From Candidatus Omnitrophota bacterium (GTDB taxonomy: Bacteria; Omnitrophota; Gorgyraeia; Gygaellales; Profunditerraquicolaceae): a stretch of 64,000 nt of DNA. Where the stretch lies: contig JBDRKE010000033.1 of NCBI GenBank assembly GCA_043814315.1, positions 10,422-74,421 on the forward strand. The letters run 5' to 3'. Each line of letters begins with the position of its first letter. The stretch's first letter is position 1. Position numbers and translations under genes: made by a program. This document shows, piece by piece, positions 3,086-64,000 of this stretch. The notes beneath the pieces were generated by a model. The model saw only the letters and a list, made by a program, of their open reading frames with translations. It searched no databases and was not told where the DNA came from.

Positions 3086-4411
3086 ATGGGAAGAAGGCCG
3101 TTAGATATTGAAAAAATTGCGATGGAATTGATCATGAGCGATGATTTGGCTGCGAAAAAAAAACTTTCCAAAAAGATTTTTGACATCGCTTATAAAAAAG
3201 GAATTTATCCTTCAAGTATACATGATTTTTACATGGCCCGCGGCAGAGGCGAATTCTTTGGGTTCACGGTGCCAGCCATCAACTTAAGAAGCATGACGTA
3301 TGATCTGGCAAAGGCGATTTTTAGGGTTGCTCAAAAGAATAATTCCGGTGCTTTTATCTTTGAGATTGCCAAGTCCGAGATGGGTTACACCGCTCAAGCC
3401 CCCCTAGAATACGCAAGCGCCGTCCTGGCAGCTGCGGTCAAGGAGGGATACGCGGGCCCTGTGTTCATCCAGGCGGACCATACCCAGGCCAATGCCAAGA
3501 AATATTTGCAAAACCCCGAGAAAGAAATGGAGGGTTTGCAGACTTTAATCAGCGAAGCGATAGACGCCCACTTTTATAATATCGACATCGATTCATCCAC
3601 GCTCGTGGATTTGTCCCATAAGGATATCAAGAAACAGCAGCATCTGAATTTCGAAGTCTGCGCAAAACTTACCCAGTTTATCAGGCGCATCGAGCCGCGC
3701 GGGGTGACGATTTCCGTGGGAGGAGAAATCGGGGAGGTGGGCCATCAGAATTCTACTCCCGAGGACCTGAGGGCCTTTATGGCAGGTTTTAAAGAGAGAT
3801 TGCGCAAGGGGTTAATCGGAATCAGCAAGATTTCCGTGCAAACGGGAACCTCGCACGGAGGCGTGGTTCTGCCGGATGGCTCCATTGCCCAGGTTAAACT
3901 TGATTTCGATACCTTGAAGAATCTTTCCCAGATAGCCAAGTCTGAGTTCGGTTTAGCGGGCGCTGTGCAGCATGGAGCATCCACTTTACCGGCTGAGGCC
4001 TTTCATAAATTCGCCGAGTGTGATGCCGCAGAAGTACATTTAGCCACGGAATTCCAGAACATGATCTACGAAAGCAAGCACTTTTCCGCAGAATTAAGGA
4101 CAAGGATGTATGAATGGTTGAAAGTCAATGCCGCCGCAGAGAAAAAAGAGGGAGAGACCGAGGAGCAGTTTATTTATAAGACGCGTAAAAAAGCCCTGGG
4201 CCCCTTTAAAAGAGAGATTATGGGCCTTCCTCAAGAGACAAGGGATGCCATAGCCGGGGAGATAGAAGAAAGATTTGATTTCTTGTTTAAGCAACTCAAT
4301 ACGGTTAATAACAAACAGCTGGTAGATAAATATATCACTTTAAAACGCGTGATTGTGCGAAAGCGAAAAGCAGCCAAGCACGCGGTGCATAATGGAGAAG
4401 GAGCGGATTAA
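3086..4411 (+). CDS. class II fructose-bisphosphate aldolase family protein (long form)
   Basis: PAINLRS, FIQADH and QTGTSHGG motifs are typical of class II aldolases. Start set at ATG 3086 after the gggagg SD; the upstream part of the ORF lies in the repeat. Confidence 0.72.
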   Translation: MGRRPLDIEKIAMELIMSDDLAAKKKLSKKIFDIAYKKGIYPSSIHDFYMARGRGEFFGFTVPAINLRSMTYDLAKAIFRVAQKNNSGAFIFEIAKSEMGYTAQAPLEYASAVLAAAVKEGYAGPVFIQADHTQANAKKYLQNPEKEMEGLQTLISEAIDAHFYNIDIDSSTLVDLSHKDIKKQQHLNFEVCAKLTQFIRRIEPRGVTISVGGEIGEVGHQNSTPEDLRAFMAGFKERLRKGLIGISKISVQTGTSHGGVVLPDGSIAQVKLDFDTLKNLSQIAKSEFGLAGAVQHGASTLPAEAFHKFAECDAAEVHLATEFQNMIYESKHFSAELRTRMYEWLKVNAAAEKKEGETEEQFIYKTRKKALGPFKREIMGLPQETRDAIAGEIEERFDFLFKQLNTVNNKQLVDKYITLKRVIVRKRKAAKHAVHNGEGAD

Positions 4412-4541
4412 ATGAGGCCACAACTTAGCGAGCGTCAGTGAAGCTAAGATGTATGGCCGAATTTATCCCGACGAATGTGGAAGAATTTAGAATAAATTTT
4501 TCCACAGTTTATGAGTCGGGATTAAGAAGGAAGGGGTAATC

Positions 4542-7858: not shown

Positions 7859-7887
7859 ATCCCTCGCCGCTAATGGCGGCTCGGGAT
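7859..7887. repeat. ATCCCTCGC...GCTCGGGAT hairpin (family copy 1)
   Basis: atccc-tc-gccgc taat ggcggc-tc-gggat. The same outer stem and TC/TC mismatch recur at 27181-27220 and 63772-63811 with different inner stems. Confidence 0.6.
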
Positions 7888-7918
7888 CAATTTACTGACA
7901 TAAGGGCGAGCGGGCAAA

Positions 7919-9897: not shown

Positions 9898-9904
9898 TAA
9901 CAAC

Positions 9905-26881: not shown

Positions 26882-27205
26882 ATGTACATCGTTATCTTAA
26901 TAACTGTTTCGAACAAAGAAGAATCAGAGCGAATTGCTCATGAGCTTATAAAAAATAAGCTTGTAGCCTGCGTGAATATGCTGGAGGGTGTGACGTCTCT
27001 GTTTTGGTGGGAGGGTAAAATCGATAAAGCCAAAGAAGTGCTCCTGGTGGCCAAGTCCAAGAAGGAGAAACTGGCCAAGATTATCAGATGCGTTAAATCC
27101 CTGCACAGTTACGAGGTGCCCGAGATTATTGCCCTGCCGATTATAGGGGGTAATAGAGCTTATTTAAAATGGATTGATATATCCCTCGCAGCAACTAGTA
27201 AATAG
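26882..27205 (+). CDS. cutA: divalent-cation tolerance protein CutA
   Basis: LVACVNM...S.FWWEGKI...E..L..K...HSYEVPEIIALP pattern. Start set at ATG 26882. Confidence 0.82.
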   Translation: MYIVILITVSNKEESERIAHELIKNKLVACVNMLEGVTSLFWWEGKIDKAKEVLLVAKSKKEKLAKIIRCVKSLHSYEVPEIIALPIIGGNRAYLKWIDISLAATSK

Positions 27206-27220
27206 AGGGGTGCTCGGGAT
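27181..27220. repeat. ATCCCTCGC...GCTCGGGAT hairpin (family copy 2), overlapping cutA stop
   Basis: atccc-tc-gca ... tgc-tc-gggat. Confidence 0.55.
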
Positions 27221-32555: not shown

Positions 32556-32612
32556 AATGATTACACAGATTTTTAAAAGCAGATTACACAGATTAAATCT
32601 ACGTAAAGAAAA

Positions 32613-35611: not shown

Positions 35612-35712
35612 CCAAAATTCCAAACTTAAAGTCAAAAACAAATAAATTTGGGCATTGTAATTTTGGTATTGTTTATTGTTTGTAATTTGTGTATTGTGAT
35701 TTGTGGTTTGAC
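35558..35712. repeat. word-repeat long hairpin (aaatcacaaa / tttgtgattt words)
   Basis: The left arm overlaps the last ~17 codons of porB. The right arm is ttgtttattgtttgtaatttgtgtattgtgatttgtggtttg. Related to 53332-53482. Confidence 0.7.
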
Positions 35713-36215: not shown

Positions 36216-36300
36216 GAAAAATCCAAAATCCAAAACTATTTGAGATTTTGAAATTAGGATTTGTTTGGTAGTATTGGTATTATTTGAAATTGGGATTTCT
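36216..36300. repeat. word-repeat hairpin, homolog of 2948-3060
   Basis: aaatccaaaatccaaaactatttgagattttg...tttggtagtattggtattatttgaaattgggatttct. Confidence 0.7.
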
Positions 36301-37978: not shown

Positions 37979-38107
37979 GCACAGATGATCACTGATGAAG
38001 AGATACAGATGATCGCAGATATCCCTCTAAAGCGGATTTTATCTGAGATCATCTGCCGGTTTTAAAGGAAGGTTGTACGCGGATCTTTATCTGTGGCCAT
38101 CTGTGTT
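37979..38107. repeat. word-repeat long hairpin (cacagat / atctgtg words)
   Basis: cacagatgatcactgatgaagagatacagatgatcgcagat faces atctgagatcatctgcc...atctttatctgtggccatctgtg. It uses the same words as 51521-51614. Confidence 0.65.
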
Positions 38108-38397: not shown

Positions 38398-41300
38398 ATG
38401 TTACGCAAAACAACCTCATTAGTTTTAACTCTTGGTTTATTCTTCCAACAATTAAGCTTTGCGCAGGTAGCTGTGGACCTTAATATCGCCGGGCACCTTT
38501 CCAGGATGGCTTCTGGGATGGCCGTAGAAAAATTCAGGCCTGTGCACCTGCGCTATTTTTCCTACGACAGCCTAAGTGATAATTTCAAGGTGCTCCTGGA
38601 TAAAGGAGACCTCAAGCAGTTGGATCCTCTTAAGGCCGAAGAATCAGCCAGGCAGCTTTTGAGTTACTTTTTGATAGGGGTCACTATGCCGGATGAGGCG
38701 TTTTGGGTGAACCTTAGGCCTGATTCAGAGAACCAGATTATAGACCCTTACCTGGAAAAGACAGATGTAGGTAAGATTATGCTTAAGGCGGACCTTCAGC
38801 TTAAGAAGGATACCGCAGCCCTCACTTCTCCCAAGACTCCCGAAGGCAGGGAATATTGGAACCGGCTCTATAAAAAAGCAGAGGAGCTCTATGGTTATGA
38901 GGCGGTTAATATACCTGCCTTAACCAGGCCCTGGATAGTCCCCGGTGAAATCATCATCAGGGAATCCCAGGAGAGCGCCTATATCTATAAGGCGACTCTT
39001 AAGGTGATGCTGGAGCAGGATTATTTAAAGGGGCAGGGGAGTGGCCAGGGTGCAGGGTGGATGGTACAGGGTGCAGGGAATTATGAGTTTAAGGATGAGC
39101 GCTCCAGGATTCTGAATGAATACTCAACCCAGCTTGTACGCGAACTCATCGTTCCGAAACTCACCAAAGAGGTCAATAGCGCCAAGCGCTATGCCGCAGT
39201 CAGGCAGGTGTATTATTCACTCATCCTTTCCCGCTGGTTCAAGCAGCGTTTTTCCGGAAAAAGCGGCACCTATGCTTCTCTCATCAATACCGAAGACCTC
39301 ACGAACCTGCTTTCCAGGGAACCCTGGTCAAAGACCGATTATTTCAAGCAATACCAGAAGTCATTCGCAGAAGGGGAATATAACATCCAAGAGCCGGTTT
39401 ACACTCCCACAGGCCAAACGATACGGAGTTATTTCAGCGGAGGGATGGCACTGCAAGCTATCAATACAGGTAATCGTTTTACAGTTGAACCTAACCTGGC
39501 CTTGTTTAAAACAGGGTTTCCTTTGCAAGGTGATGCTAAAGGAATTATTAGCGCCGGCTCGCCGGTGACGGAAGCGCAGGCATTAGCGAAAGAGTTTGCT
39601 GAATCAATGGCAGCTAATGACATTATTAATTCTGACCTTAAGGCGCAGGAGGAGGTAATCTCTATCTTGCTGCCCCTCATAGAAGAGTTCTCCCTTCAGT
39701 TCGGGCGCGTTTCTGTTACAGAGGAAGCATTTGATTATTATAGATGGATTCAAGGTCTTCAGGCTGACCCTAAATATGTGATGGAATTACAAAATCCGGC
39801 ATTTTATTCAAAGAAAGCCAGGGAGTTTGTCAATGAAAGGTTTGATAATATCCCCACTGTTGTTGAGAATAAATTATCAAGGTTGGCCCTTGAGGAACCG
39901 GAGCTGGTCCAATTCAAAGATGAGTTAATATTTTGGCTGCAGCAGGTTATAAGTGACGGCGTGCGCAGCGACCTTCCTGATGATTCCAAAAAAGTGAGGA
40001 TATCGGCAATATTGAGCCTACCTAACTATATCGAAGCTTCCCCCCAGAAATACCCTCCTGAGATGAATTCCCTAATAAATTCTTTTCTGGATACGCATAG
40101 TGTGGAGAAGATAAGGGCAATTGAGTCAACAAACAATAAGGAATTGGGCGAGATACTAAACATACTTACATCCAGCGTGCTTGATACCAGCCTCGTAGCT
40201 TCCGCCGGATCGCCGGTGGAATCGGAAGCTGCTTTAGTGCAACAGATAAAGGACCGGTTGTGGCGTGTAATTAAGGAAACCGAGGATTCGCTACTGTTTA
40301 ATGGTACAAAATATTTGCCTAAAAAATTAAATCAAGCTGCAAGTTTGAAAGAATTAGGCAATTTTCGTGGTGAGTTTTTTGGAGCAATCGATGAACTAAT
40401 AGCATGGAATAAAGAGAATTCCACGGTATTAAAATCTTCTGAATACAACATTGGCAGGTTGAATCAGCTAAAGAACTCTATAGTTGATATCTTACCCCAA
40501 CTCTTTGCGCAGGAAATAAATAATCTATTTAACGAAAATGTGAAATTTGAGATCTATAAAGGCGAAAGTGACGGCAATTATTATTTTAAAATGTGGGACA
40601 GAATAATAAATCAGCCCAATGTTTCCAGCGCCACAGACGGAGGTTTTTATTCCGGTAAACCCAACCTGCATAGATTGTTTATAGCCCTACTAGAATCCGG
40701 CTTTGCCCTAGATCCTAAAACCAATACGATTACCTTTAGTAACAGCCAGGCAGTCGATGAGATTAAAACCCAGATTAAAGCTCATATGCCTGAATCCGCC
40801 GCCGGCCCTTCGACTCGCTCCGCTCGCTCAGGGTCAGCGCAGCCCGATGAAGACAAAGCCGCCGGCTCGCCGGTTCAAACGGAAACTGAAGATCTGAGAA
40901 AGCTTAAGAACCTTCTTCTTTTGAAGATGGAAGACCTGACGCCTGAACATCGAAAAATCATAGGAGACTCATCTCTTGAATTGCCTTTAGGCGGAACGAC
41001 TTCATTAAAAGAATTTAATGAATCCCTTATTAAGTCTATTAAAGAAGTCGACGGCTTGATAACACGAAGCGAAGAGATTATCAAACATTATAAAGATATC
41101 CTCTCCTACAGGTGGTTAGAAAACTCAGCGAAAGATAATTTAGAGGCGTGGGGTTCATTAAAAAATATCTTAGAAGAGATATCAAAAGAATTATCAAAAT
41201 ACGCATCAATCTATCCGGCCATATTCGTGAAGGGCTTTTTAACAACTGGCTTAATGGATCAGGCCCAGGCGCCGGACGAAGGTGCCGCCGGCTCGCCGGT

Positions 41301-43587
41301 GGTTTACCCCTGGGGCAGGCAATTGTCGCCTTTGCCCAGATCTGGTGAAAACATCGTGAGCGCATTAAAAAGGTTGATGGAAAATCCCGTAACCAAAATG
41401 ATTACATTGAAAGTAGAGAATAGTTTGTATCAGAGAATAGAGCTCAACATAGAAAGCATCACAAGCGAAAAAGATAAGAGCACAATAGCGGTTTCGCCGC
41501 GCGATTTAAATGAAATATTGAACAACCTTAAAGCATCTGGTGAATTTGAGTTATCACAAGTAGGAAAAGGTTATGATACCTATATAACGGCAACTCGCAA
41601 GGCCGCCTACCTTTTGCGCTTTGTTCTTGAAAGACTCGAAAGAGTAAAGAGAGCAGAAGAAATCTTGAAAAATGAGTTGAAGAACTTTAATCATGATACG
41701 GGCTTGTCACGTTTTCCGTGGCGAAGTATATCTTACTTATCGGGATATGAAATCAATATGAATTATAATGATAAAATCAGAGAAGCAAGGGTTTATTTGC
41801 TGGGTAAAGGAGGAGAGGAGTTGTTTCAACTTGTTTATCCTGAAACAAAATTGGACGAGTTGGATAGAAAAGTAATCAAGCTGGATTTAACAGATGCAGT
41901 CAATGCAGAGCTTTGGGCCTTAAAGCAGTTAGAATCAGAATTGGAAGAAGCGAAGGCTTTGCAGGGGCGCGCAACGACCCTCGCGACGCAGGCTTCTGCC
42001 GCCGGCTCGCCGGTGAGGGAGAGTAACCATAACCATTTCACCGTGTCGTATGAGGTCACTAATGGTCAGTTTTCAGATAAGGATTTACGAGAAGATATCC
42101 AAAACTTGAAAGAACATCTTCGTAGTCAAGATACAGGCACGATAACATTTGCAAGAGAATGGATCGAAGGGGTTGTTCATCTTGAGGGGGGTCTATTCGC
42201 TCCTTATAATGCCGACGCAGAACTAGGTTTGTTTATTCAATTCCTGGCTTCTTTTATCCCTGGAACAAATATCCATAGCGCTTTAGGCGACAGTGATAAT
42301 TTAGACCTGGTTCGTAGCTTAAAATTAAGCCTTGTTCATAAAGAAGGCAAGGCGCCCAAAGGGGCAACTGTCGCTATCTCAGCTCTTAGCAAACAGATCG
42401 AGCAAGGAGTGGTAACCTTTAGCTTTAATGGCGCCGACTATTTGACGCAGGCAAAGGACAAATATATCTTTGATATAAAAGATATTCCTACTATGGTTGA
42501 AGAAGAATTAACTGCTAACGGCTCTTATGTTACATTAAAAAATCTGTTAGTTACGCATCTGCAGAAGGTTGTAGCATTGCATCAAGAAGGCCGAGCAACC
42601 GCTCAGAATGTTATATCTGCCATAAAAGCTCTTGCGGAATATATTCGCCTAGTAAGAAGCACGGGCATTGATTTAGGGGCGTGGAATAAAGTTACCGCTG
42701 GTCAAATTAACTGGCCTTTAAATCAAGTGCCGGAATTGGATTTTATTCTGTCTGAGTTAGTTAGCAGAATGCGGGGAAACTATAATGATAGAGGGCAAGA
42801 GCTGGACAAAATATTAAATTCACTTGAGAATGTTATTAAGGAAGCTGCCGCCGGCTCGCCGGTGCAGGAGTCAAACGCTATGATTATGGAACGGGCATTA
42901 AATGTTTTTCAAGACCCTCAAAAATTAAGTGAATGTTATGTAGATAATCAAATAATGGGAAAGGGTGAGGGGAAAGAAAGAAGAATACGTTACCTCTCAG
43001 GTATTGCTGAAGGTTATAAGATTTCTTTGCGCTTTGATGCAGACCACAACCACACCATGATTACATTAGTGAATCCTGAAAGTAGAATTGTAATAGCGCG
43101 ACCTTCTGTCAGTGACGCTGTTTATTATTTCGAAGTCGATAGAGACGTTATACTGTATCGATTAATTAACGAGATGAAAGATAAACTGGGCATTTCTTCT
43201 TCGCCGGTACAGGCGGTGTCTACAGATATTGCAGATGAAGGGGTAGGAGGAATTGATTTTCGTGCCCTGCCTATGACCATCCAGCCCATGGGGAGCTTCC
43301 AGGGGTTGAATTTCAGCTTACCGAAGTTAAGCCAGGCAGAGCTGGAGAGGATAAATGTGGATACGGAGCTGCGCCAGATAGAGCAAATGGTAGACTCCGG
43401 TATTACGCCTTCCGGAGCAAGGATTAAAGAGCTTATCGCTGCCTGCGCGCAAAAAGGCAAAATTAGCGCTTACGCCGACCATTTATTGCTTTGCCTCGTA
43501 GATATATGTAAACTGCAGGAGGAGGAGGCGAGCGAGACTTCGGCGGAGTTGAGGGAAGCGCTGGTTATAGTTGATGCGGTGAGCTAG
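38398..43587 (+). CDS. giant modular secreted protein (1729 aa), family unrecognised
   Basis: Signal peptide (LVLTLGLFFQQLSFAQV), then a ~350-aa conserved N-domain, six unrelated modules separated by AAGSPV junctions, and a conserved ~125-aa C-domain (GGIDFRALP...SGITPS...). SD gggagg. Confidence 0.85.
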   Translation: MLRKTTSLVLTLGLFFQQLSFAQVAVDLNIAGHLSRMASGMAVEKFRPVHLRYFSYDSLSDNFKVLLDKGDLKQLDPLKAEESARQLLSYFLIGVTMPDEAFWVNLRPDSENQIIDPYLEKTDVGKIMLKADLQLKKDTAALTSPKTPEGREYWNRLYKKAEELYGYEAVNIPALTRPWIVPGEIIIRESQESAYIYKATLKVMLEQDYLKGQGSGQGAGWMVQGAGNYEFKDERSRILNEYSTQLVRELIVPKLTKEVNSAKRYAAVRQVYYSLILSRWFKQRFSGKSGTYASLINTEDLTNLLSREPWSKTDYFKQYQKSFAEGEYNIQEPVYTPTGQTIRSYFSGGMALQAINTGNRFTVEPNLALFKTGFPLQGDAKGIISAGSPVTEAQALAKEFAESMAANDIINSDLKAQEEVISILLPLIEEFSLQFGRVSVTEEAFDYYRWIQGLQADPKYVMELQNPAFYSKKAREFVNERFDNIPTVVENKLSRLALEEPELVQFKDELIFWLQQVISDGVRSDLPDDSKKVRISAILSLPNYIEASPQKYPPEMNSLINSFLDTHSVEKIRAIESTNNKELGEILNILTSSVLDTSLVASAGSPVESEAALVQQIKDRLWRVIKETEDSLLFNGTKYLPKKLNQAASLKELGNFRGEFFGAIDELIAWNKENSTVLKSSEYNIGRLNQLKNSIVDILPQLFAQEINNLFNENVKFEIYKGESDGNYYFKMWDRIINQPNVSSATDGGFYSGKPNLHRLFIALLESGFALDPKTNTITFSNSQAVDEIKTQIKAHMPESAAGPSTRSARSGSAQPDEDKAAGSPVQTETEDLRKLKNLLLLKMEDLTPEHRKIIGDSSLELPLGGTTSLKEFNESLIKSIKEVDGLITRSEEIIKHYKDILSYRWLENSAKDNLEAWGSLKNILEEISKELSKYASIYPAIFVKGFLTTGLMDQAQAPDEGAAGSPVVYPWGRQLSPLPRSGENIVSALKRLMENPVTKMITLKVENSLYQRIELNIESITSEKDKSTIAVSPRDLNEILNNLKASGEFELSQVGKGYDTYITATRKAAYLLRFVLERLERVKRAEEILKNELKNFNHDTGLSRFPWRSISYLSGYEINMNYNDKIREARVYLLGKGGEELFQLVYPETKLDELDRKVIKLDLTDAVNAELWALKQLESELEEAKALQGRATTLATQASAAGSPVRESNHNHFTVSYEVTNGQFSDKDLREDIQNLKEHLRSQDTGTITFAREWIEGVVHLEGGLFAPYNADAELGLFIQFLASFIPGTNIHSALGDSDNLDLVRSLKLSLVHKEGKAPKGATVAISALSKQIEQGVVTFSFNGADYLTQAKDKYIFDIKDIPTMVEEELTANGSYVTLKNLLVTHLQKVVALHQEGRATAQNVISAIKALAEYIRLVRSTGIDLGAWNKVTAGQINWPLNQVPELDFILSELVSRMRGNYNDRGQELDKILNSLENVIKEAAAGSPVQESNAMIMERALNVFQDPQKLSECYVDNQIMGKGEGKERRIRYLSGIAEGYKISLRFDADHNHTMITLVNPESRIVIARPSVSDAVYYFEVDRDVILYRLINEMKDKLGISSSPVQAVSTDIADEGVGGIDFRALPMTIQPMGSFQGLNFSLPKLSQAELERINVDTELRQIEQMVDSGITPSGARIKELIAACAQKGKISAYADHLLLCLVDICKLQEEEASETSAELREALVIVDAVS
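39550..43212 (+). repeat. interspersed in-frame junction repeat GCCGCCGGCTCGCCGGTG (7 sites)
   Basis: Exact 18/18 at 41284, 41998 and 42847; 17/18 at 40858; 16/18 at 39550 and 40201; core tcgccggt at ~43201. Confidence 0.9.
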
Positions 43588-46688: not shown

Positions 46689-46691
46689 AAT

Positions 46692-46801
46692 TGTGTAATG
46701 TGTAATGTGTAATGATGGTGTTATGCATCAAAGTGTAATGGAGCGCATTCGCCTTCCATTTACACAAAATAACATTAAACCCGCATTACACTTTACACAT
46801 T
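46692..46801. repeat. word-repeat long hairpin (gtgtaatg / cattacac words)
   Basis: tgtgtaatgtgtaatgtgtaatg ... cattacactttacacatt, with a nested gtgtaatgga/tccatttacac hairpin. Confidence 0.7.
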
Positions 46802-46819
46802 CAGCAAATATTAATAATT

Positions 46820-51519: not shown

Positions 51520-51520
51520 T

Positions 51521-51614
51521 GTAGCACAGATTAGCACAGATGAAAAGCGCACAAGATGAACACAGATAAAATCTGTGATTATCTGTTTCATTCAATCTGC
51601 GAGCATCTGTGTTC
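51521..51614. repeat. word-repeat long hairpin (cacagat / atctgtg words)
   Basis: gcacagattagcacagatgaaaagcgcacaagatgaacacagat faces atctgtgattatctgtttcattcaatctgcgagcatctgtg. Confidence 0.7.
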
Positions 51615-51632
51615 TAAGGAGCGATAGAGACG

Positions 51633-52332: not shown

Positions 52333-52452
52333 AAAATTCAAATGACAAAGCACAAAATTCAAAATAAGCCCCCATTTCCAAATCCCAAACTTACTTTTTG
52401 GATTTGGGATTTTGGATTTGTTTTGGATTTTGGATTTTGACATTTGGATTTA
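52333..52452. repeat. word-repeat long hairpin (aaattc/aaatccc vs ggattt words)
   Basis: ...ccaaatcccaaac ttac tttttggatttgggattttggatttgttttggattttggattttgacatttggattt. Confidence 0.7.
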
Positions 52453-53331: not shown

Positions 53332-53482
53332 TAAATCCCAAATCACAAATACCAATATACAAACAAATCATAAAACCCTGCCTGCCGGCAGGCAGGCAAA
53401 ACCATAATACACAATGTTTTTTATGATTTGAATATTTGGTATTGTGGTTTGTTTGTGATTTGTGGTTTGTGATTTGGAATTT
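53332..53482. repeat. word-repeat long hairpin with 20-nt perfect palindrome at the apex
   Basis: aaatcccaaatcacaaataccaatatacaaacaaatca ... CCTGCCTGCCGGCAGGCAGG (53377-53396) ... tgatttgaatatttggtattgtggtttgtttgtgatttgtggtttgtgatttgg. Confidence 0.75.
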
Positions 53483-56112: not shown

Positions 56113-58482
56113 ATGCGAAGAATATCCCTTGTCGTTTTTTTTATTTTGTGCGCGAGCTTAATATTTACGCCTTTTTCTTTTTTATCTGCCCAATCTGAAT
56201 CCGAACAAAACCCTCCTGCCTCAGGCTCCACAACTCCTTTCGTCACAGCCATCGAAGTCCAGGGCAATAAAACCATAAGCTCCAATACGGTTATATCTAA
56301 AATGAAGACCAGGGTCGGCAGCCCTTACCAGGAGAACGTCATTAGCGACGATTTGAAGCGGCTTTACCTGCTGGGGTTTTTTAGCGATATCAAAATCGAT
56401 ACGACGGATTACAAGGACGGCCTTAAAGTCGTTATAAACGTTGTGGAAAGGCCCATCATCGAGAAAATAACCTTTTCAGAATTGAGGCGCTTACGGACCA
56501 CTTCGGAAAAACTCAAGAAAGATCTGAAGTCTAAAGAAACGCAGTATTTGGATTATCCGGATCTTGCCGAAGATGTCCGCACCCTGCAGAAGAGGTACGA
56601 AAAAATCGGCTACAGCCAGGCCAAGGTTGATTATGAGGTCGATATCGACGAAAAGACGAATAAGGCCAAGGTGCGGTTTAACATAGAAGAGAGCAGGAAG
56701 GTGCGTATCAAAGATATCTTTACAAAAGGTAACTACGCTTTTTCCAGGAATCGCATCCTGCGGTTGATAAAGACGAAAAGGGCATGGATATTTAATCCGG
56801 GCGTCTTAAAGGAAGACGTGCTTAAAGAGGATATGGAGCGTATAAAATCTTTCTACCATAAGGCCGGTTTTACCGACGTAGCATTAGATTATGAAGTCAC
56901 CCCAGATCCCTTGAGGCCCTACCTGTTGCATATCCGCATCAAGATTGAAGAGGGGAAAAGATATTTGGTAGGCAATATCAATGTCCAGGGCCATAAGGAT
57001 ATCGAACTCAGCGAGATTTTAGATAGCCTAAAAGAATGTGTGCCGGTAAAGGTCTTTAGTAAAGAAGCCTTGCAGATGGACGTCGCCAATATCAAGAGCC
57101 TGTATTTTGACCGCGGCTATATATCCTGTCAGGTCCAGGAAACGACTTCCGTCAATACGTATACGGGGCGGGTGGACATCCTTTACACTATCGCCGAGCA
57201 TGAAATAGCCTATATAGATAAGATCAAGATCAGAGGGAATGTTAAGACCAGGGATGTGGTCATCCGCAGGGAATTAAGGATACTTCCCGGGGACAGGTTC
57301 GATGGGGAGAAGCTCAGGCGCAGCCGTGAAAGACTTCAGAACCTGGGGTTTTTCGAACAGGTAGGTTACGATACCGAAGATGCGGATGCGGCTGACAGAA
57401 AGAATCTCGTGGTGGATGTGAAAGAGACCAAGACAGGGGCCTTTAGTTTTGGCGGCGGCTACAGCACGGTCGACAAATTTATAGGTTTTATTGAGGTGGA
57501 ACAGAAGAATTTCGACTGGAAGAATTTCCCTTATTTTACCGGTGCGGGCCAGGACTTGAGATTGCGGGCTTCCTTCGGGACGATCAGCAGCGGTTTTGAT
57601 TTAAGTTACACGAATCCGTGGGTATTTGATTATCCGGTGAGTTTTGGTTTTGATGCCTATCGGCATACCCGCGAACGCGAGGAAGACGTGGGCTATGCCT
57701 ACGATGAGAAGATAACCGGGGGAGACCTGAGGCTCGGCAAAGAGATATCAGAATACGTCAGGGGCAATATCATGTATCGCCATGACGTTATAGATATTTC
57801 CAACGTTGACCCGGCGGCCTCAAATGCGCTGCACAAGGAAGCCGGCACCAATACGGTCAGCAGCCTGACGCCGGGGCTTACTTTTGACAATCGCGATAAT
57901 GTCTTTAGCCCCCGAAAGGGAGATTTGATAAGCGGTTCTTTTGAGTTAGCCGGCGGGCCCTTTGCAGGGAACAAGGATTTCTGGAAATTCAATAGCCGTT
58001 TTTCGCATTACTTCCCTTTACCTAAAGATTCTGCCCTTGAGATGCGCGCGAGGGTGGGCGCAGGTGAACCTTACGGCGATTCTGAGGAGATTCCGATATA
58101 CGAAAGATTCTTTTCCGGCGGTGCTTATACCATTAGAGGTTATGAGGAAAGGTCCATAGGGCCGGTGGATCCTTTGACCTATGACCCCTTAGGCGGGCAG
58201 GCGTTTTTGGTGGGGAATCTTGAGTACACCTTGCCGCTGTATCAGGCCACCGACAAAAGCTTTAAGATCAGCATGGCGGCATTTTATGACACGGGAAACG
58301 TTTGGGCAAAGTTAAGCAATATTGGGTCCGGAAGTTTTTACTCCGGTATGGGATTCGGCGTCCGGCTCAAGACGCCTATCGGCCCGATTATGGTTGATTA
58401 CGGGATACCTTTAAATAAAGCGCCTGGAGAACAGGATAAGGGTAGCGGCAGGCTGCATTTCAGCGCAGGGCACGCGTTCTAA
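56113..58482 (+). CDS. bamA: outer membrane protein assembly factor BamA
   Basis: Signal peptide, POTRA repeats (I.V.GN......I), and a C-terminal Omp85 barrel ending ..HFSAGHAF. Confidence 0.9.
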   Translation: MRRISLVVFFILCASLIFTPFSFLSAQSESEQNPPASGSTTPFVTAIEVQGNKTISSNTVISKMKTRVGSPYQENVISDDLKRLYLLGFFSDIKIDTTDYKDGLKVVINVVERPIIEKITFSELRRLRTTSEKLKKDLKSKETQYLDYPDLAEDVRTLQKRYEKIGYSQAKVDYEVDIDEKTNKAKVRFNIEESRKVRIKDIFTKGNYAFSRNRILRLIKTKRAWIFNPGVLKEDVLKEDMERIKSFYHKAGFTDVALDYEVTPDPLRPYLLHIRIKIEEGKRYLVGNINVQGHKDIELSEILDSLKECVPVKVFSKEALQMDVANIKSLYFDRGYISCQVQETTSVNTYTGRVDILYTIAEHEIAYIDKIKIRGNVKTRDVVIRRELRILPGDRFDGEKLRRSRERLQNLGFFEQVGYDTEDADAADRKNLVVDVKETKTGAFSFGGGYSTVDKFIGFIEVEQKNFDWKNFPYFTGAGQDLRLRASFGTISSGFDLSYTNPWVFDYPVSFGFDAYRHTREREEDVGYAYDEKITGGDLRLGKEISEYVRGNIMYRHDVIDISNVDPAASNALHKEAGTNTVSSLTPGLTFDNRDNVFSPRKGDLISGSFELAGGPFAGNKDFWKFNSRFSHYFPLPKDSALEMRARVGAGEPYGDSEEIPIYERFFSGGAYTIRGYEERSIGPVDPLTYDPLGGQAFLVGNLEYTLPLYQATDKSFKISMAAFYDTGNVWAKLSNIGSGSFYSGMGFGVRLKTPIGPIMVDYGIPLNKAPGEQDKGSGRLHFSAGHAF

Positions 58483-58490
58483 GCGAGGGT

Positions 58491-58661
58491 GAACTTACCC
58501 CCCCACCACTTTTTGTAACAAGCGCGTGATTTACTAAATAGGGGGCGAGGGGTAGCTATACCGAAGGATCTTATTTCAAGTGTATTCTCAAAAAGTGGTG
58601 GGGGGTTAATTCGCGCATTAACTTACGTCGTGCTTCGCACTCCGTAAGTTAAGCGCTCATT
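58491..58661 (+). repeat. two-hairpin 5'-UTR element, copy E1 (upstream of skp)
   Basis: ccccccaccactttttg/caaaaagtggtgggggg forms a 17-bp stem, then TTAATTCG, then the hairpin cgcattaacttacg...cgtaagttaagcg, then CTCATTAAA and the SD. Confidence 0.7.
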
Positions 58662-58677
58662 AAAAGGAGGAGGAAAG

Positions 58678-59187
58678 ATGAGAAAGGCTTCAGCAGCTTT
58701 TTGGGTAACGCTTTTTTGTTTAACCTTATTGGTAAAACCGGCCTTTGCGGCCGATAAATTTGCCTATGTTGATTTAAGCCGCATTTTCAGCGAATACGGC
58801 AAGACAAAAGATTACGATAAGATTTTGACGGATAAAGAGAATGTCTATAGCACGGACAGAGAGAAGAAGGTCAATGAGATAAAGCAATTTCAGGATAAAT
58901 TGAATCTATTAAGCGAGAAAGAAAAAGAAACAAAGAAAGGAGACCTGGAGACGAGAATCAAGACCCTTCAGGAGTTTGACCGGGAGAAGCAGACAGATCT
59001 ACGCAAAGAGCAAGACGAAAGAATGAAAGAAATCCTTAAGGATATCGAAGAGGTCGTTAAGCAGTATTCCGAAAAAGAGGGCTACACCTTGGTTTTTAAT
59101 GACCGTGTTTTAGTCTATCAGAATAAGACGATGGATATCACAGACAAGGTCATAGAGATTTTAAGCAAAGGATACAAGAAGCAATGA
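58678..59187 (+). CDS. skp: OmpH/Skp periplasmic chaperone
   Basis: Signal peptide, K/E-rich coiled-coil body, position between bamA and lpxD. Confidence 0.85.
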   Translation: MRKASAAFWVTLFCLTLLVKPAFAADKFAYVDLSRIFSEYGKTKDYDKILTDKENVYSTDREKKVNEIKQFQDKLNLLSEKEKETKKGDLETRIKTLQEFDREKQTDLRKEQDERMKEILKDIEEVVKQYSEKEGYTLVFNDRVLVYQNKTMDITDKVIEILSKGYKKQ

Positions 59188-59279
59188 TGCCATCATAGCC
59201 TGCGATGTGCGAGTTCATCATCTAGGCAAACGTTCCATTCAAACAACCCCTGGTCTTCGGGGTTGTTTGCTCATCTGAT

Positions 59280-60317
59280 ATGCGTAAAACCTTAAGAGAG
59301 ATTGCCAAGATTATCGAGGGAGAGGTTGTGGGAGACCCCGACGTGCTGATTACGGGAATCTCGGGGATAAAAGAGGCCCGCGAAGGAGATATCACATTTC
59401 TGGCGAACCCCAAGTATGCAACGCTCGCGGAGACGACGCGCGCCTCAGCCATCATCACCTCCGAAGACGAGCGGGGCTTATCCAAACCCGTTATCCGTAC
59501 GGCAAATCCTTCTTTGGCGTTCGTCAAGATCGTTGAGGCCTTTTTGCCTTCCGAGGTCAATCGCCCGCAAGGAATACATCCTACGGCTGTTATAGGCAAA
59601 GGCGTAACTTTTGGCGAGGACGTCGCTGTCGGGCCGTATACCGTCATCGAAGAGGGCGTGTCTATCGGCGACAAAACAATCATTTACTCAGGCTGTTTTG
59701 TGGGGTATTCCAGCAGGATAGGCCCTAGCGCCTTGATATATCCCCATGTCTCCATCCGTGAACAGACGCATATTGGAAGCCGCGTTATCATACATAGTGG
59801 TGCGGTTATCGGTTCTGACGGGTTCGGTTTTGTAACCATTAAGGGCGTGCATCATAAAATCCCGCAGGTTGGCAGCGTCGAAATAGGGGATGATGTAGAG
59901 ATCGGAGCTAATGTCACTATCGACCGCGCCCGGTTCGATAAGACCGTGATTGCAAGCGGCACAAAAATTGACAATCTGGTCCAGATCGCCCATAATGTGG
60001 TGATCGGAGAAAATTCCATTATTGTGTCGCAGGCAGGTATTGCCGGAAGCGCGACCATCGGCCGGGGCGTTACCCTGGCAGGCCAAGTGGGGATCGTTGG
60101 GCATATCACTATCGGAGACAGGGCCGTAGTCATGGGGCAGTCGGGGGTGACAAAGTCTATTGCTGCCGATACGATTGTTTGGGGGATGCCGGCAAAGCCG
60201 CATGCTTTCGCGAAACGCGTCAATGCCTGCATGCAGAATCTGCCTAAATTGTTTGAAACCGTAACACAGCTGAAGAAGAAAATAGAGGCATTAGAGGCTA
60301 AGTTAAGAGAAAGATAG
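59280..60317 (+). CDS. lpxD: UDP-3-O-acylglucosamine N-acyltransferase
   Basis: N-terminal LpxD domain plus hexapeptide repeats and a C-terminal helix; 345 aa. Confidence 0.92.
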
Positions 60318-60380
60318 AAAGAGTAACCAGAAACTAGAGCACAGAAACCAGAAGGGTAAAAGAGGGAGATTGCGAAATAA

Positions 60381-61697
60381 ATGGAGAAACAAAGGACGAT
60401 TACTAAAGAATTAGCCTTAAGCGGTATAGGATTGCACACGGCCAAGAAGGTGAACATGGCCTTTAAGCCGGCCGAAGAGGACAGCGGCATCCAGTTTATC
60501 CGCGTGGACCTGCCCCGCAAGCCGGTGATCAGGGCTTGCGTAGAGAACCTGCTTTCTTCCACCCTTACGCCCCGACGCACCTCTATCGGCACGCAAGGTG
60601 TTGAAATACAGACCATCGAACATCTCATGGCATCCCTGGCAGGCTTAAGCATCGACAATATTGCTATCGAGCTGGATAATGACGAGGTCCCGGGATTGGA
60701 CGGCAGCAGTCTTAATTTCTTAGAGATCCTTTATGATGCCGGCATAAAAGAACAGAAAAAAGAGCGCCAGTATTATTCTATTAAAGAACCGATTTATGCC
60801 GAAGAGGAAGATTCGACCATCATTGCCCTGCCGTCATCTGAATTCAAGATTTCTTATACGCTCAATTACAACCACCCAATGCTTAAGACAGATTTTATGG
60901 AGTTGATGATTACTCCCGATGTATTTAAAAACGAAATCTGCCGTGCCAGGACTTTCTGCCTTGAGAACGAAGTCAACGAATTACAGCGCCAGGGCCTGGG
61001 CCGCGGAGCCAACTACAATAATACTCTTGTCTTAGGCGAGGAAGGGGTCATCAAGAATAAATTACGTTACGAAGACGAATTCATCCGCCATAAGATATTG
61101 GACCTCATGGGAGACCTGTATCTGGCGGGTTCTCCATTAAAGGCGCATATTATTGCCTTAAGAAGCGGCCACTCCTTGAATCTGAAATTAATCAGGAAGA
61201 TAGGCCAACAGAGGCAAAGGTCTTTTGCGGGGGGCGTAGGCTCAAGTTACCAGCCTAAGCAGGAAGAAGAATTGGGTTTAACGATGATTAAGAAGATTCT
61301 GCCGCATCGGGAGCCCTTTTTGTTCGTCGACAAAATAATTCATTTAGAACAGGGGAAGCACTGCGTGGGCATTAAGAACGTAACGATCAATGATTATTTT
61401 TTTAAAGGGCATTTTCCCGGTAGGCCCGTCATGCCGGGTGTCTTAATCGTGGAAGCCCTGGCTCAGGTGGGAGGCGTGATGATGCTTTCTCCGGAAGCCA
61501 ACCGCGGGAAGCTCGCCTATTTTATGTCCGCTAATAACATAAAATTCAGAAAAACGGTTATTCCCGGAGACCAGTTGGTGCTTGACGTAGAGGCGGGTAA
61601 AATCAAGGCAAGGACCGGCCAAGTCCGCGGCAAGGCCCTTGTGGATGGCAGGGTCGTGGCCGAAGCGGACCTCATGTTCGTGCTGGCCGATTCCTAA
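60381..61697 (+). CDS. lpxC: bifunctional UDP-3-O-acyl-GlcNAc deacetylase / 3-hydroxyacyl-ACP dehydratase (LpxC-FabZ fusion)
   Basis: SGIGLHT, TIEHLMA and HKILDLMGDL (LpxC) are followed by LPHREPFLFVD...HFPGRPVMPGVL (FabZ). Confidence 0.92.
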   Translation: MEKQRTITKELALSGIGLHTAKKVNMAFKPAEEDSGIQFIRVDLPRKPVIRACVENLLSSTLTPRRTSIGTQGVEIQTIEHLMASLAGLSIDNIAIELDNDEVPGLDGSSLNFLEILYDAGIKEQKKERQYYSIKEPIYAEEEDSTIIALPSSEFKISYTLNYNHPMLKTDFMELMITPDVFKNEICRARTFCLENEVNELQRQGLGRGANYNNTLVLGEEGVIKNKLRYEDEFIRHKILDLMGDLYLAGSPLKAHIIALRSGHSLNLKLIRKIGQQRQRSFAGGVGSSYQPKQEEELGLTMIKKILPHREPFLFVDKIIHLEQGKHCVGIKNVTINDYFFKGHFPGRPVMPGVLIVEALAQVGGVMMLSPEANRGKLAYFMSANNIKFRKTVIPGDQLVLDVEAGKIKARTGQVRGKALVDGRVVAEADLMFVLADS

Positions 61698-61779
61698 TGG
61701 GACATCGGGTGATCAGGATATCAGGATTTGGAGATCAGGTCCCCTGATATCCAAATCTCCTGAAAAGCTTAAACGTTAG

Positions 61780-62562
61780 ATGATTCACCCTACAGCGATT
61801 GTTTCTAAAAAAGCGAAATTAGATACCGATGTCACCGTCGGACCGTTTGCGGTTATCGGAGACGATGTGGCCATCGGCAAGGGAACTTTCATCGCAGCGC
61901 ATTGCGTCATTGAGGGTTATACGACAATCGGAAAGAACTGCCAGATTTTCTCCGGCGCTGTGGTAGGAAGCAGGCCTCAGGACCTCAAATATAAAGGCGA
62001 AAAGGTATACCTTGAGATAGGAGACGAAAATATCATCCGGGAATACTGCACGTTTAATCCCGGAACCCAGCAGGGCGCAAAGACCGTTATCGGCCACAAT
62101 AATCTCTTTATGGCTTATTCCCACATTGCCCACGATTGCGTTATAGGCCATCATTGCGTCATCGCCAATAACGGGACTTGCGCCGGATACGTTACGATCG
62201 AAGACAAAGCCATTATAGGCGGAATAGTAGCCATTCACCAGTTCGTCAGAATCGGCACCCTTTCCATCATCGGCGGATGTTCCAAGGTTGTTTCGGATAT
62301 CCCTCCGTTTTCAACCTGTGACGGACATCCGGCAGCCGTGTACGGCCTTAACATGGTGGGTTGTAAACGCAATAATGTCCCTAAAGAATCCATCGATCAG
62401 CTTCACCGCGCTTTTAAGATACTTTTTAATCAGGGCCTCACTCTTAAACACGGATTAGATAAGGTTCAAAAAGAAGTCAAACAGACCAAGGAAGTTATCT
62501 ACCTGGTTAATTTTATAAAGAACTCCCAGCGAGGCATCGCTCATTCCTGTCGAAAGAAGTAA
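61780..62562 (+). CDS. lpxA: acyl-ACP:UDP-GlcNAc O-acyltransferase
   Basis: IHPTAIV start, hexapeptide repeats and a C-terminal helical domain; 260 aa. Confidence 0.92.
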   Translation: MIHPTAIVSKKAKLDTDVTVGPFAVIGDDVAIGKGTFIAAHCVIEGYTTIGKNCQIFSGAVVGSRPQDLKYKGEKVYLEIGDENIIREYCTFNPGTQQGAKTVIGHNNLFMAYSHIAHDCVIGHHCVIANNGTCAGYVTIEDKAIIGGIVAIHQFVRIGTLSIIGGCSKVVSDIPPFSTCDGHPAAVYGLNMVGCKRNNVPKESIDQLHRAFKILFNQGLTLKHGLDKVQKEVKQTKEVIYLVNFIKNSQRGIAHSCRKK

Positions 62563-62741
62563 GTGAGGCCTAAACTTATGGAGCGCGCACCCGGCTTTAT
62601 ACCCACTCCACCATATCGGAGTGGTGGGTACGCCGCCTTCTGCGGCGGGATCAGCGGCACCCGGCCTTAAATGATAGGCTTAGTGTCTTGCCTCCTGCAA
62701 GATGTGCCGCTTCTGCGGCAAGCGAACATAAGTTTATGGCC

Positions 62742-62857
62742 GAACTTACCCCCCACCACCTTCAATATAGCATAGGCTATAGCGAAAGTGGTGGGGGGTC
62801 AATTCGCGCAGATAACTTACGTCGCGCCTTCAGCGCTTTGTAAGTTATGCGCTCATT
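62742..62857 (+). repeat. two-hairpin 5'-UTR element, copy E2 (upstream of lpxI)
   Basis: gaacttaccccccaccac...gtggtggggggTCAATTCGcgcagataacttac...gtaagttatgcgCTCATTGAA-ATG. Confidence 0.7.
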
Positions 62858-62859
62858 GA

Positions 62860-63663
62860 ATGGAAAAAATAGGCCTTATCGCAGGCAACAAAAAGTTTCC
62901 TCTGATTGTCGCGCAGGCGGCTAAGAAAAACAATTTTCATATTGTCGCAGTAGCCATCCGGCAAGATACATCGCGGCAGCTTGAGAAGTTTGTCGATAAG
63001 ATTTACTGGATAGGGCTGGATGAATTTATGCGGATGTGCGAGATATTTAAACGGGAAGGCATCCGTAAGGTTATGATGGCAGGCCAGATCAGTCCTGCCA
63101 GGCTTTTCAGCAAGGAAGTCGAGAGAAGCGAAGACTTAAAAAATCTACTGGCCAGCTTGAAAGACAAAAAAGCTGATACGATATTTGTTGCCGTCGCAGA
63201 GAAATTAAAAGAGTTTCAGATTGAATTATTGGACTCTACGGCTTTTGTAAAAGAACTCCTGCCCAAAAAAGGAACACTCACCAGGCGCGAACCCGATTCT
63301 TGGCAATGGGAGGATATTCATTTCGGATTCGATTTGGCTAAGGAGATTGCGCGTCTTGATATCGGCCAGACAGTAGCGGTGAAATCAAAAGCCGTGGTTG
63401 CGGTTGAAGCTCTGGAAGGGACGGATAACCTGATTCGCCGAGCCGCGAAAATTAGCCGCGGCGGTTTTTTGTTAGTCAAGGTCAGCAAACCCAGGCAGGA
63501 TATGCGTTTTGATATACCGGTCGTCGGCCTGAATACCGTAAAGAATCTGCTCAAAGCCAAGGCCAAGGGGTTGGCCATTGAAGCAGAAAAAACCCTTTTC
63601 ATAGATTTTGAGGAAAGCGTTAACTTAGCGGATAGAAAAGGGTTAGTTATTGTAGCCCTTTAG
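62860..63663 (+). CDS. lpxI: UDP-2,3-diacylglucosamine diphosphatase LpxI (DUF1009)
   Basis: IGLIAGNKKFP start, EALEGTD motif, and position after lpxA. Confidence 0.82.
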   Translation: MEKIGLIAGNKKFPLIVAQAAKKNNFHIVAVAIRQDTSRQLEKFVDKIYWIGLDEFMRMCEIFKREGIRKVMMAGQISPARLFSKEVERSEDLKNLLASLKDKKADTIFVAVAEKLKEFQIELLDSTAFVKELLPKKGTLTRREPDSWQWEDIHFGFDLAKEIARLDIGQTVAVKSKAVVAVEALEGTDNLIRRAAKISRGGFLLVKVSKPRQDMRFDIPVVGLNTVKNLLKAKAKGLAIEAEKTLFIDFEESVNLADRKGLVIVAL

Positions 63664-63726
63664 GCTAAGGCCAGCGTCTTGTCCTGTTTTGTCCCGGACA
63701 CAGATAGAAAGAGGCAGAAATTTCTC

Positions 63727-63755
63727 TTGACACAGCTTTAGTTGTTGTGTATAAC
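63727..63755 (+). promoter_or_regulatory. candidate sigma70 promoter
   Basis: TTGACA (63727-63732), 17-nt spacer, TATAAC (63750-63755). Confidence 0.5.
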
Positions 63756-63771
63756 TAAAACATCAAAGTTT

Positions 63772-63866
63772 ATCCCTCGCACCCAGCAGGAAATAGCCGG
63801 GTGCTCGGGATCAATTCGTCCCGCTTCTTGCAGTCTTGCGAATGCAAGAATGCAGCGGGGCTCATT
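63772..63866 (+). repeat. two-hairpin 5'-UTR element, copy E3 (also ATCCCTCGC...GGGAT family copy 3)
   Basis: atccc-tc-gcaccc...gggtgc-tc-gggat, TCAATTCG, the hairpin cccgct-tcttgca...tgcaaga-..agcggg, then CTCATTGAAGGAGG. Confidence 0.65.
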
Positions 63867-63879
63867 GAAGGAGGAACCC

Positions 63880-64000
63880 ATGGTAGTGGCGAGGGTAAAG
63901 ACGGCAGAATTCAAATTATATGCACCCCAGGCAAAAAAAGTCAGTATTGCCGGGACTTTTAATAATTGGGATACCAAGGCGCTTAGCGCAAAAAAGGATT
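63880..64000 (+). CDS. 5' end of a glycogen-binding (CBM48/AMPK-beta GBD-like) domain protein, truncated by window
   Basis: ATG after a gaaggagg SD. MVVARVKTAEFKLYAPQAKKVSIAGTFNNWD matches the F.L.AP.A..V.L.G.FN.W pattern of CBM48/E-set N-terminal domains. Confidence 0.55.
   Translation, partial: MVVARVKTAEFKLYAPQAKKVSIAGTFNNWDTKALSAKKD

Follow-up and report, generated by a model that had tools for sequence, protein, structure and literature searches.

Among 64,000 nucleotides (nt) of Candidatus Omnitrophota bacterium DNA (assembly GCA_043814315.1, contig JBDRKE010000033.1, positions 10,422 to 74,421, forward strand; this whole stretch is the window), three structured elements stand directly ahead of skp, lpxI and a gene encoding a CBM48 domain: E1 (58491-58661), E2 (62742-62857) and E3 (63772-63866). 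[quoted passage not shown] This repeat family is abundant, modular and polar, and it is physically linked to a minimal GIY-YIG nuclease gene. By analogy, the nuclease-bearing units would be to the short ones what an autonomous or helper partner is to MITEs or REPINs.

The elements in the window

All three elements were re-read from the sequence at the positions first stated for them, and the pattern YAATTCG, 15-120 nt, CTCATTRAA has exactly three matches in the window, all on the plus strand, which are E1, E2 and E3. Neither motif is enriched on its own (CTCATTRAA is present 4 times against 2.0 expected, and YAATTCG 17 times against 24.9 expected); the single-motif rates give an estimate of about 0.04 chance co-occurrences of the pair, against 3 observed. 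The regions of E1, E2 and E3 fold more stably than shuffled sequences (z = -5.3, -8.9 and -3.8, respectively), and their 3' ends lie 0-14 nt ahead of a start codon (skp ATG 58678, lpxI ATG 62860, CBM48-gene ATG 63880). Exact coordinates, pattern matches and shuffle scores thus bear out the recurrent structured module that a first-pass annotation, made from the sequence, had recognised at the starts of these genes. Identification of the neighbouring genes through Pfam places E1 in the bamA-skp gap, E2 in the lpxA-lpxI gap, and E3 between a promoter-like site and the CBM48-domain gene. The annotation also gave the linkers the same position relative to the Shine-Dalgarno (SD) sequence and the ATG; every element does end at the start codon, but E2 has no SD, and the lpxI ATG lies directly 3' of its helix.

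The conserved linkers YAATTCG and CTCATTRAA had been taken as single-stranded, and this does not hold: they pair with each other to form the basal helix of hairpin 2, each supplying one strand. UYAAU pairs with AUURA in every predicted fold, closing hairpin 2 over a symmetric UC/UC loop and a GC-rich helix, and the U..A pair of E1 is replaced by C..G in E2 and E3, a compensatory change. A covariance model, R1, was built on hairpin 2, and copies were sought in loci of two origins, each with its own sampling bias: GTDB loci (centred on lpxA) and metagenome loci (picked by a right-arm pattern). Across 11 seeds, 91% of the cells of the linker helix are paired; across 141 distinct arms the figure is 98.4%, with 251 cells changed on both sides and the Y/R position occupied by UA (63), AU (50), CG (7) or GC (2). 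No shuffle and no slid register comes near the observed level.

In total, the 64 kb contain four arms and two H1-only modules (Table 1). The outer arm end of W4 overlaps the TAA stop of the plus-strand gene at 3044-4411, and its R1 match (4405-4469) was confirmed with filters off.

Anatomy of the full unit

The annotation had described a two-hairpin 5' untranslated region (5'-UTR) architecture. The hairpins are real, but they are H1 and the right arm, the right-hand two thirds of a symmetric three-hairpin intercistronic unit. The complete order, with all three hairpins adjacent, is (stop codon) TAAGTGAGGxx-left arm-GAAyTTA-H1-TnAATTC-right arm-GCGCTCATTnA-(SD or ATG). E2 is part of such a complete unit, in which the lpxA stop TAA (62560-62562) continues directly into GTGAGGCC of the left arm, and the 5' flank GAACTTA that E1 and E2 have in common mirrors the linker TNAATTC.

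The left arm is the inverted repeat of the right arm, and the two match one covariance model and one hidden Markov model on opposite strands. In each arm a basal helix of 5 A/T base pairs is followed by the conserved TC/TC internal loop, a GC helix of 4 bp and an inner stem of 9-10 bp, and the tip is hypervariable yet still self-complementary; H1 belongs to several recurrent sequence families. On the gene strand the left arms read TAAGTGAGG… and the right arms end 3' in GCGCTCATT[A/T/G]A. The left-arm and right-arm strands, as read from the sequences, are mutually complementary, so alternative pairings are possible. Many right arms have a CGTC-like motif (CGTC or CGTT) 5' of the variable tip; the tip stems are 4-6 bp, GC-first, and their 3' flank is TCCG.

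A variety of inserts was seen within the hairpins. Loops homologous to the E1 H1 loop (58510-58589, about 75 nt) occur within its own H1 family in L045 (395-470) and L076 (10771-10842), and H1 hairpins of the ACCCAGCAC family (L072, L075, L127, L162) contain an insert of a length similar to that of the E1 loop, with the motifs TTTGTA..TATAG..TTTTCAAA. Neither type of insert has significant similarity to the GIY-YIG gene, and the proposal that the E1 loop is a decayed nuclease gene was rejected (alignment scores equal those of shuffles, z about 0). Small GC-rich modules, such as CACCCGGCTTTAT.. and GCCGCTTCTGCGGC, are nested in arm loops at 62585-62725 of the window, in L066, and in L072 (about 2000-2260) and L094 (about 5150-5300); one right arm of L072 contains a unit of about 45 nt, GTTGCCGCAGAAGGCGGCATACCGAGCTTTCCGATRAGCTCGGGT, in four tandem copies.

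A GIY-YIG nuclease gene nested in H1

At 10 independent loci (L011, L100, and those of the proteins P0040, P0058, P0025, P0010, P0051, P0019, P0060 and P0048) a GIY-YIG ORF is located in the H1 loop between a left and a right arm. The nested nucleases are 76-93 amino acids (aa) long, or about 85-100 aa at L100; in L011 it is the lpxA|lpxI unit that holds the ORF, of 79 aa. The domain scores above the Pfam threshold (PF01541, 39.4 bits, cut-off 22.6); the protein consists of the catalytic domain alone, and its nearest solved relatives are UPF0213 proteins (1ZG2, E = 0.003). A protein search returned 71 homologues, mostly of 74-104 aa and all with a precomputed PF01541 assignment, three of which are named as Omnitrophica.

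Contigs were compared for eight homologue loci, and in each a left arm lies just 5' and a right arm just 3' of the nuclease gene, the right arm at the P0010 locus being a weak match to the model (17.6 bits, E = 0.026). The nuclease gene is on the strand of the downstream gene in all eight, and on that of both neighbours in all except L196; the junctions occupied include nuoB|nuoC, trpE-like|rpsP and mnmE|folE. H1 stems ACCCAGCACTAATTT…AAATTAGTGCTGGGT hug the ORF in seven of the eight loci; the exception is the P0019 locus (L193), where no H1 stem but the 3' one can be recognised. L100 has a second GIY-YIG lineage (35% identity), which sits in another H1 family, CCCTTGACAT…ATGTCAAGGG. Both nuclease-bearing families (ACCCAGCACTAATTT.. 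and CCCTTGACAT..) are also common as ORF-less hairpins.

Where the inner gap between paired arms is long, it holds a GIY-YIG gene in all seven distinct cases, and no other ORF was found between arms, Y1 transposases not having been searched for. The distant GIY-YIG homologue P0067 has no arms and falls outside the family.

Small GIY-YIG genes are also present without detectable arms nearby (L163 4934-5191, L063 559-780, L139 6371-6607), which indicates that the nuclease family in Omnitrophota contigs is wider than its arm-flanked set. In three of the nested cases (L170 3001, L185 1501, L196 601) the nuclease ORF lacks an SD and fits closely between the H1 stems, with its ATG 0-4 nt past the 5' stem and the 3' stem beginning right after its stop codon; a long-range H1 helix would therefore sequester the nuclease start. 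The unit in L176-L178 lies between giant called genes, with products of 19,857 and 23,706 residues according to the gene caller (L177, L178), and the window itself has a 1729-aa ORF at 38398-43587.

Abundance, arrangement and gene context

The first-pass annotation had proposed a covariance-model scan for further copies, and hundreds were found. R1 copies are present in six relatives (L001, L002, L005, L011, L013, L027), a strict DNA pattern of the H1/arm junction matched at least 120 metagenome contigs, and R1 recognised 201 arms in 666 kb of metagenome loci. Neighbouring arms form convergent doublets in 77 of 89 pairs, 19-133 nt apart with H1 between them, and divergent ones in 5; some doublets are joined in alternating arrays (L092, L108, L099). 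A loose arm pattern gave 14 matches in viral contigs, all of them chance, none being confirmed by the covariance model.

The placement of the arms is polar. A long ORF starts within 30 nt downstream of 118 of the 168 right arms, and the offsets are bimodal, at -1 to +2 (71 cases, ATG without an SD) and at +9 to +16 (SD-spaced); 28 of the 55 left arms begin exactly on the TAA stop of the upstream gene. The 71 direct-ATG right arms comprise 28 with a detected left arm and 43 without, many of the latter having collapsed remnants. Genes 3' of units encode trigger factor (tig), triosephosphate isomerase (tpiA), Dxr, a thiamine pyrophosphate enzyme, HisF, DnaA, DnaB, RuvC and ribosomal protein L2 (rplB). 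A minority of copies are reversed, or antisense to flanking genes (W4, for example), or abut the 3' ends of tRNA genes.

Arms that end exactly at the 3' end of an opposite-strand tRNA gene (..TCATTTA|TGGGCCATGTAGG..) were noted in L002 (about 9050-9140), L005 (about 14540-14586), L136 and L124; L158 and L160 have a unit of H1 and right arm downstream of a tRNA gene and ahead of a glmS-like start.

Gain and loss between relatives

Species genomes were scanned with LpxA, which placed the window in the Omnitrophota; LpxA identity to the window is 88% for L001, about 70% for about ten loci and 50-60% for others. The LpxI protein had no exact match on record. The annotation had looked to orthologous UTRs for conservation of the linkers, and even in L001, the closest relative, E2 is missing and E1 and E3 are present only in part: the bamA-skp spacer is 66 nt and has a right arm only, the lpxA-lpxI spacer is 6 nt, and the CBM48 leader runs from the promoter and H1 straight into AGGAGG, so that the right arm of E3 is a clean 51-nt indel. 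L001 carries a full unit at another site.

The lpxA|lpxI junction is 1-6 nt in nine of the closer relatives (among L001-L009 and L019), for example TAGCGATGG, TAACCATGG and TAAAATG. It became filled on separate occasions in the window and in L011; in four relatives further removed (L012-L014, L027) the spacer there is long but free of the element. From the short empty junctions we conclude that the genes whose stop and start codons exactly bracket a unit were once tightly coupled. No target-site duplication was found: E2 has TAA as its left flank and TGA as its right flank, and the boundaries of the E3 indel relative to L001 are unique, without a repeat. Covariation between the terminal N of ATTNA and TNAAT on the inner side of its arm also counts against such a duplication.

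Table 1. Coordinates of element parts and other repeats in the window. Scores are matches to the covariance model R1 unless stated otherwise.
Feature	Position	Strand	Basis and remarks
E1 left end: bamA stop TAA, collapsed left-arm remnant TAAGCGAGGGT, mirrored linker GAACTTA	58480..58497	+	Fits canonical left end TAAGTGAGG...GAACTTA; like collapsed left arms in L074, L156
E1 H1 central hairpin: stem CCCCCCACCACTTTTT / AAAAAGTGGTGGGGGG, loop about 75 nt	58498..58605	+	Predicted fold; stem family also in L097, L146, L045, L076
E1 right arm: TTAAT-TC-GCGC-a-TAACTTACG..CGTAAGTTA-a-GCGC-TC-ATTAA, then AAGGAGGAGG and skp ATG	58606..58663	+	77.3 bits, E = 9e-16; fold
E2 left arm from lpxA stop (TAAGTGAGGCC TAAACTTATGG .. 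CATAAGTTTATGGCC), nested insert of about 135 nt in loop, GAACTTA end	62560..62748	+	Weak covariance-model hit 62664-62752(-), 15 bits; nested insert also in L066
E2 H1 central hairpin: CCCCCCACCAC .. GTGGTGGGGGG	62749..62798	+	Sequence, fold
E2 right arm: TCAAT-TC-GCGCA..TGCGC-TC-ATTGA	62799..62859	+	73 bits, E = 9e-15; fold
Promoter-like TTGACA-17 nt-TATAAC 5' of E3	63727..63755	+	Read from sequence, not listed by consensus scan; matching arrangement in L001
E3 H1 central hairpin: CCC-TCG-CACCC .. GGGTG-CTC-GGG	63774..63809	+	Fold; H1 type also at 7861-7885, 27183-27218
E3 right arm, divergent stems: TCAAT-TC-GTCCCGC..GCGGGGC-TC-ATTGA, then AGGAGG and ATG	63811..63868	+	41 bits, E = 2e-7
W4, fourth copy: H1 (CCCGAC..GTCGGG) and arm TAAAT-TC-GGCC..GGCC-TC-ATTTA	4409..4520	-	60.6 bits, E = 7e-12
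H1-only module CCCTCGCCGC..GCGGCTCGGG A TCAATTT, between ORF 7419-7853 and next gene	7861..7893	+	Weak covariance-model hit 7883-7926
H1-only module CCCTCGCAGC..GGTGCTCGGG, 5' of gene starting at 27272	27183..27218	+	Sequence
CCAAATC/AAATCCCAAATCC repeats	2950-3058, 35561-35704, 36219-36298, 52396-52451, 53333-53482		

Other repeats in the window

Several other repeat families are present in the same genome. A second intergenic family consists of heptad-like runs of CCAAATC/AAATCCCAAATCC arranged as long palindromes (16 matches against 4.1 expected; Table 1). The 428-nt spacer at 9477-9904 contains three units of about 140 nt (..GCAGAGCTCAGGATGATTTTGC..AACCGCCAGAGGCACAGCAAAATCAATGCC.TGGATGA..), each a strong hairpin, followed by a short tandem of AAAGCGTAAAGTGT. 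Further intergenic families include repeats rich in CACAGAT/ACAGATGA (37980-38060, 51520-51632, 32556-32600) and GTGTAATG repeats (46689-46819).

Constraint on folded DNA or on RNA

The arm stems are almost all Watson-Crick paired (1889 pairs, with 12 G.U and 14 A.C), the H1 stems have 22 G.U against 17 A.C, and there is no difference in folding energy between the sense and antisense strands (p = 0.42); on these counts and energies, selection on the RNA strand was rejected. The TC/TC internal loop is never compensated and, in element orientation, 101 of 108 right arms and 22 of 24 left arms retain it, so that the motif presented in mRNA differs by arm, UC/UC in one and GA/GA in the other. Because TC/TC is mirrored about the element centre and G.U is not in excess over A.C, the constraint looks DNA-level, and this sequence pattern points to folded DNA, such as a protein recognition site, and not to one RNA strand.

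Interpretation and alternatives

We favour an interspersed repeat family with a nuclease partner, and a mechanism can be proposed. The GIY-YIG nuclease may recognise hairpin or cruciform DNA formed by H1 and the arms, and so drive the spread of the units. Units within operons would be co-transcribed, with their hairpins as passengers in the mRNA; these would have to leave room for the downstream gene to be translated and may even help, a possibility suggested by the frequent lack of an SD in that gene. As a more specific and tentative proposal, less likely than the general one, the family could constitute a novel class of mobile element: a unit of about 450-500 bp in which a catalytic-domain-only GIY-YIG gene of about 77-79 aa is nested in a hairpin between two arms, with a nuclease that recognises DNA in folded form (hairpin or cruciform) and inserts the unit precisely at the stop/start junction of translationally coupled genes, a compact transcript fold, or its removal, that keeps the SD-less gene translated, and abundant ORF-less derivatives that punctuate Omnitrophota operons.

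Several observations weigh against a nuclease-driven family. No transposition event, target-site duplication or excision product was seen, the window contains no GIY-YIG gene, and no nuclease partner was found for the H1 families CCCCCCACCAC, CCCTCGC and CCCGAC. The order of events may also be the reverse, with a GIY-YIG homing gene invading the H1 loops of pre-existing repeats. Finally, the arm sequences are conserved across lineages whose LpxA proteins are only about 60-70% identical, and the fit of right arms to start codons is far more exact than can easily be put down to random insertion with subsequent selection; either point could mean a host-level function in RNA or translation.

Such a function is the main rival, since SD-less downstream genes stand behind a structured spacer of about 100-300 nt. 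The units would then be a host-maintained intercistronic RNA device, whose three-hairpin fold joins stop and start codons, or switches upon translation of the upstream gene, and so preserves the coupling or start access of SD-less genes, or sets cistron-specific mRNA stability. Strict polarity with gene direction argues for it, as do ends flush with stop and start codons, the 71 right arms with an ATG 0-2 nt past the helix and no SD (essential genes included), the coupled ancestral junctions with spacers of 1-6 nt, the conservation of arms over distant lineages, and the alternative pairings that complementary arm strands allow. We nevertheless consider it unlikely: G.U is not in excess over A.C and there is no sense/antisense energy bias, the mirrored TC/TC loops give each arm an RNA motif of its own, close relatives differ by gain and loss of modules, some copies run antisense to flanking genes or lie at tRNA gene 3' ends, and the element is linked to a nuclease gene.

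Less probable still is a REP/REPIN-type element moved by another enzyme, such as a REP-associated tyrosine transposase (RAYT) or an IS200-like Y1 transposase, with the GIY-YIG gene as a secondary homing invader of the H1 loop. The doublets, the alternating arrays (L092, L108, L099) and the extragenic location do recall REPINs and bacterial interspersed mosaic elements (BIMEs), many H1 families have no known GIY-YIG partner, and many right arms have a CGTC-like tag ahead of the variable tip (PMC3733652). Against this, no Y1 transposase was seen, though none was searched for; the long-gap arm pairs hold GIY-YIG genes and nothing else (7/7 distinct cases), two nuclease lineages match two H1 families, and the stem and tail features of CGTC REPs are lacking.

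The first-pass annotation had read the elements as a cis-regulatory RNA or protein-binding module and had proposed a test for enrichment at envelope genes. A dedicated cis-regulatory 5'-UTR RNA (a riboswitch or protein-binding leader) for outer-membrane and lipopolysaccharide (LPS) genes would fit the three copies ahead of skp, lpxI and the CBM48 gene, as well as those at skp in L001 and L027 and at lpxI in L011. We regard this as very improbable. The skp/lpxI association is an effect of sampling loci around lpxA, and unbiased copies precede the diverse, unrelated housekeeping genes listed above; the element is missing at the envelope sites in most relatives, and its linkers are paired and not free. 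There is also no Rfam match: with Rfam 15, a gathering-threshold scan of the whole window gave only tRNA, and a scan of 58400-64000 at E <= 10 gave nothing relevant.

Intrinsic, possibly bidirectional, terminators or attenuators would account for GC-rich intergenic hairpins with A/T-rich flanks but are hardly credible here, as the annotation had already judged, for neither hairpin has a U-tract on its 3' side (the tails are UYAAUUCG and CUCAUURA), the terminator scan listed none of them, the units lie inside operons directly ahead of essential genes, and E3 is just 3' of a promoter. A hammerhead core, a bulge-helix-bulge intron and group I or II intron boundaries were rejected on inspection by eye only, the required core sequences being absent.

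The repeat family has several implications. For annotation, the structured spacers 5' of many Omnitrophota genes belong to a repeat family and do not warrant annotation as gene-specific riboregulators, and the covariance model of the arm is a ready metagenome marker for this lineage. If the nuclease link holds, a new enzyme class joins the few proteins tied to REP/MITE-like repeats, and the minimal GIY-YIG protein would be a compact, possibly structure-specific nuclease. The units also raise a question about translation, namely how an essential, SD-less and formerly coupled gene is still translated when a unit of about 100-300 nt separates its start codon from the preceding stop codon.

Comparison with known systems

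We found no description of palindromic repeats, REPs or MITEs in the Omnitrophota or in association with GIY-YIG proteins; coverage of the literature was incomplete, and novelty is accordingly provisional. Fungal mitochondrial genomes of Allomyces have double-hairpin elements that are small, mobile and intergenic, consist of adjacent hairpins, and occur in genomes that also carry GIY-YIG endonuclease ORFs. Host and sequence differ from those of the present units, and we know of no description of placement flush with stop and start codons for them.

Integron attC sites and the Vibrio VCR repeats are likewise polar imperfect palindromes between co-oriented ORFs. It is the folded single strand, with its conserved unpaired bases, that is recognised, and the repeats often reach the stop codon. 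The genes that flank the Omnitrophota units, in contrast, are core housekeeping genes (bamA, skp, lpx, ribosomal, replication), and there are no R'/R'' core sites (GTTRRRY) in the consensus and no integrase context.

The free-standing GIY-YIG homing genes of phage T4 (seg and mob; PMC2988022) are small ORFs between conserved co-oriented genes, transcribed by the host and present or absent among relatives, as the nuclease-bearing units are. Whereas homing endonucleases of the I-TevI/Seg type cleave sequence-specifically by means of a DNA-binding domain, the protein here is the catalytic domain only, with no separate DNA-binding domain; its ORF is nested in a hairpin and bracketed by conserved arms, and abundant ORF-less derivatives occupy many chromosomal sites of a cellular genome.

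MITEs found in operon mRNAs, such as Correia/CREE of Neisseria, ERIC/IRU of enterobacteria and BOX of pneumococci (covered in part in PMC10969869), have in common with these units terminal inverted repeats, a size of about 150-300 bp, intergenic location, co-transcription, stable RNA hairpins, modularity and presence/absence variation. The Omnitrophota unit differs in that no target-site duplication was detected, its terminal bases covary with the inside of the same arm, its partner ORF is not a known transposase, and insertion is exactly between stop and start codons.

The CGTC-tagged REPs of Di Nocera et al. (2013; PMC3733652) have a CGTC/TGTC tag, an 8-9-bp stem that opens with A/T pairs, a 4-5-nt loop and a CCA tail. 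The CGTC/TGTC motif 5' of a small, GC-rich, variable palindrome, the predominance of head-to-head dimers and the lack of a known dedicated Y1 transposase are points of likeness, whereas the tips here are 4-6 bp, without A/T opening pairs or a CCA tail, and are embedded in a much larger conserved hairpin.

In broad organisation the family is like the REP/BIME and REPIN-RAYT systems of E. coli and Pseudomonas, which are also high-copy, short, extragenic imperfect palindromes arranged as inverted doublets with a spacer and as alternating mosaic arrays, present in operons and served by a repeat-flanked helper gene. GTAG, the hallmark tag of REPs, is absent from the arm consensus, which has only the internal CGTC-like motif, and the linked gene is a domain-only GIY-YIG and not a Y1 (HUH) transposase, a class that was not searched for. 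Unlike a REPIN, the unit described here has three hairpins with a distinct central H1, is strictly polar, and ends on stop and start codons.

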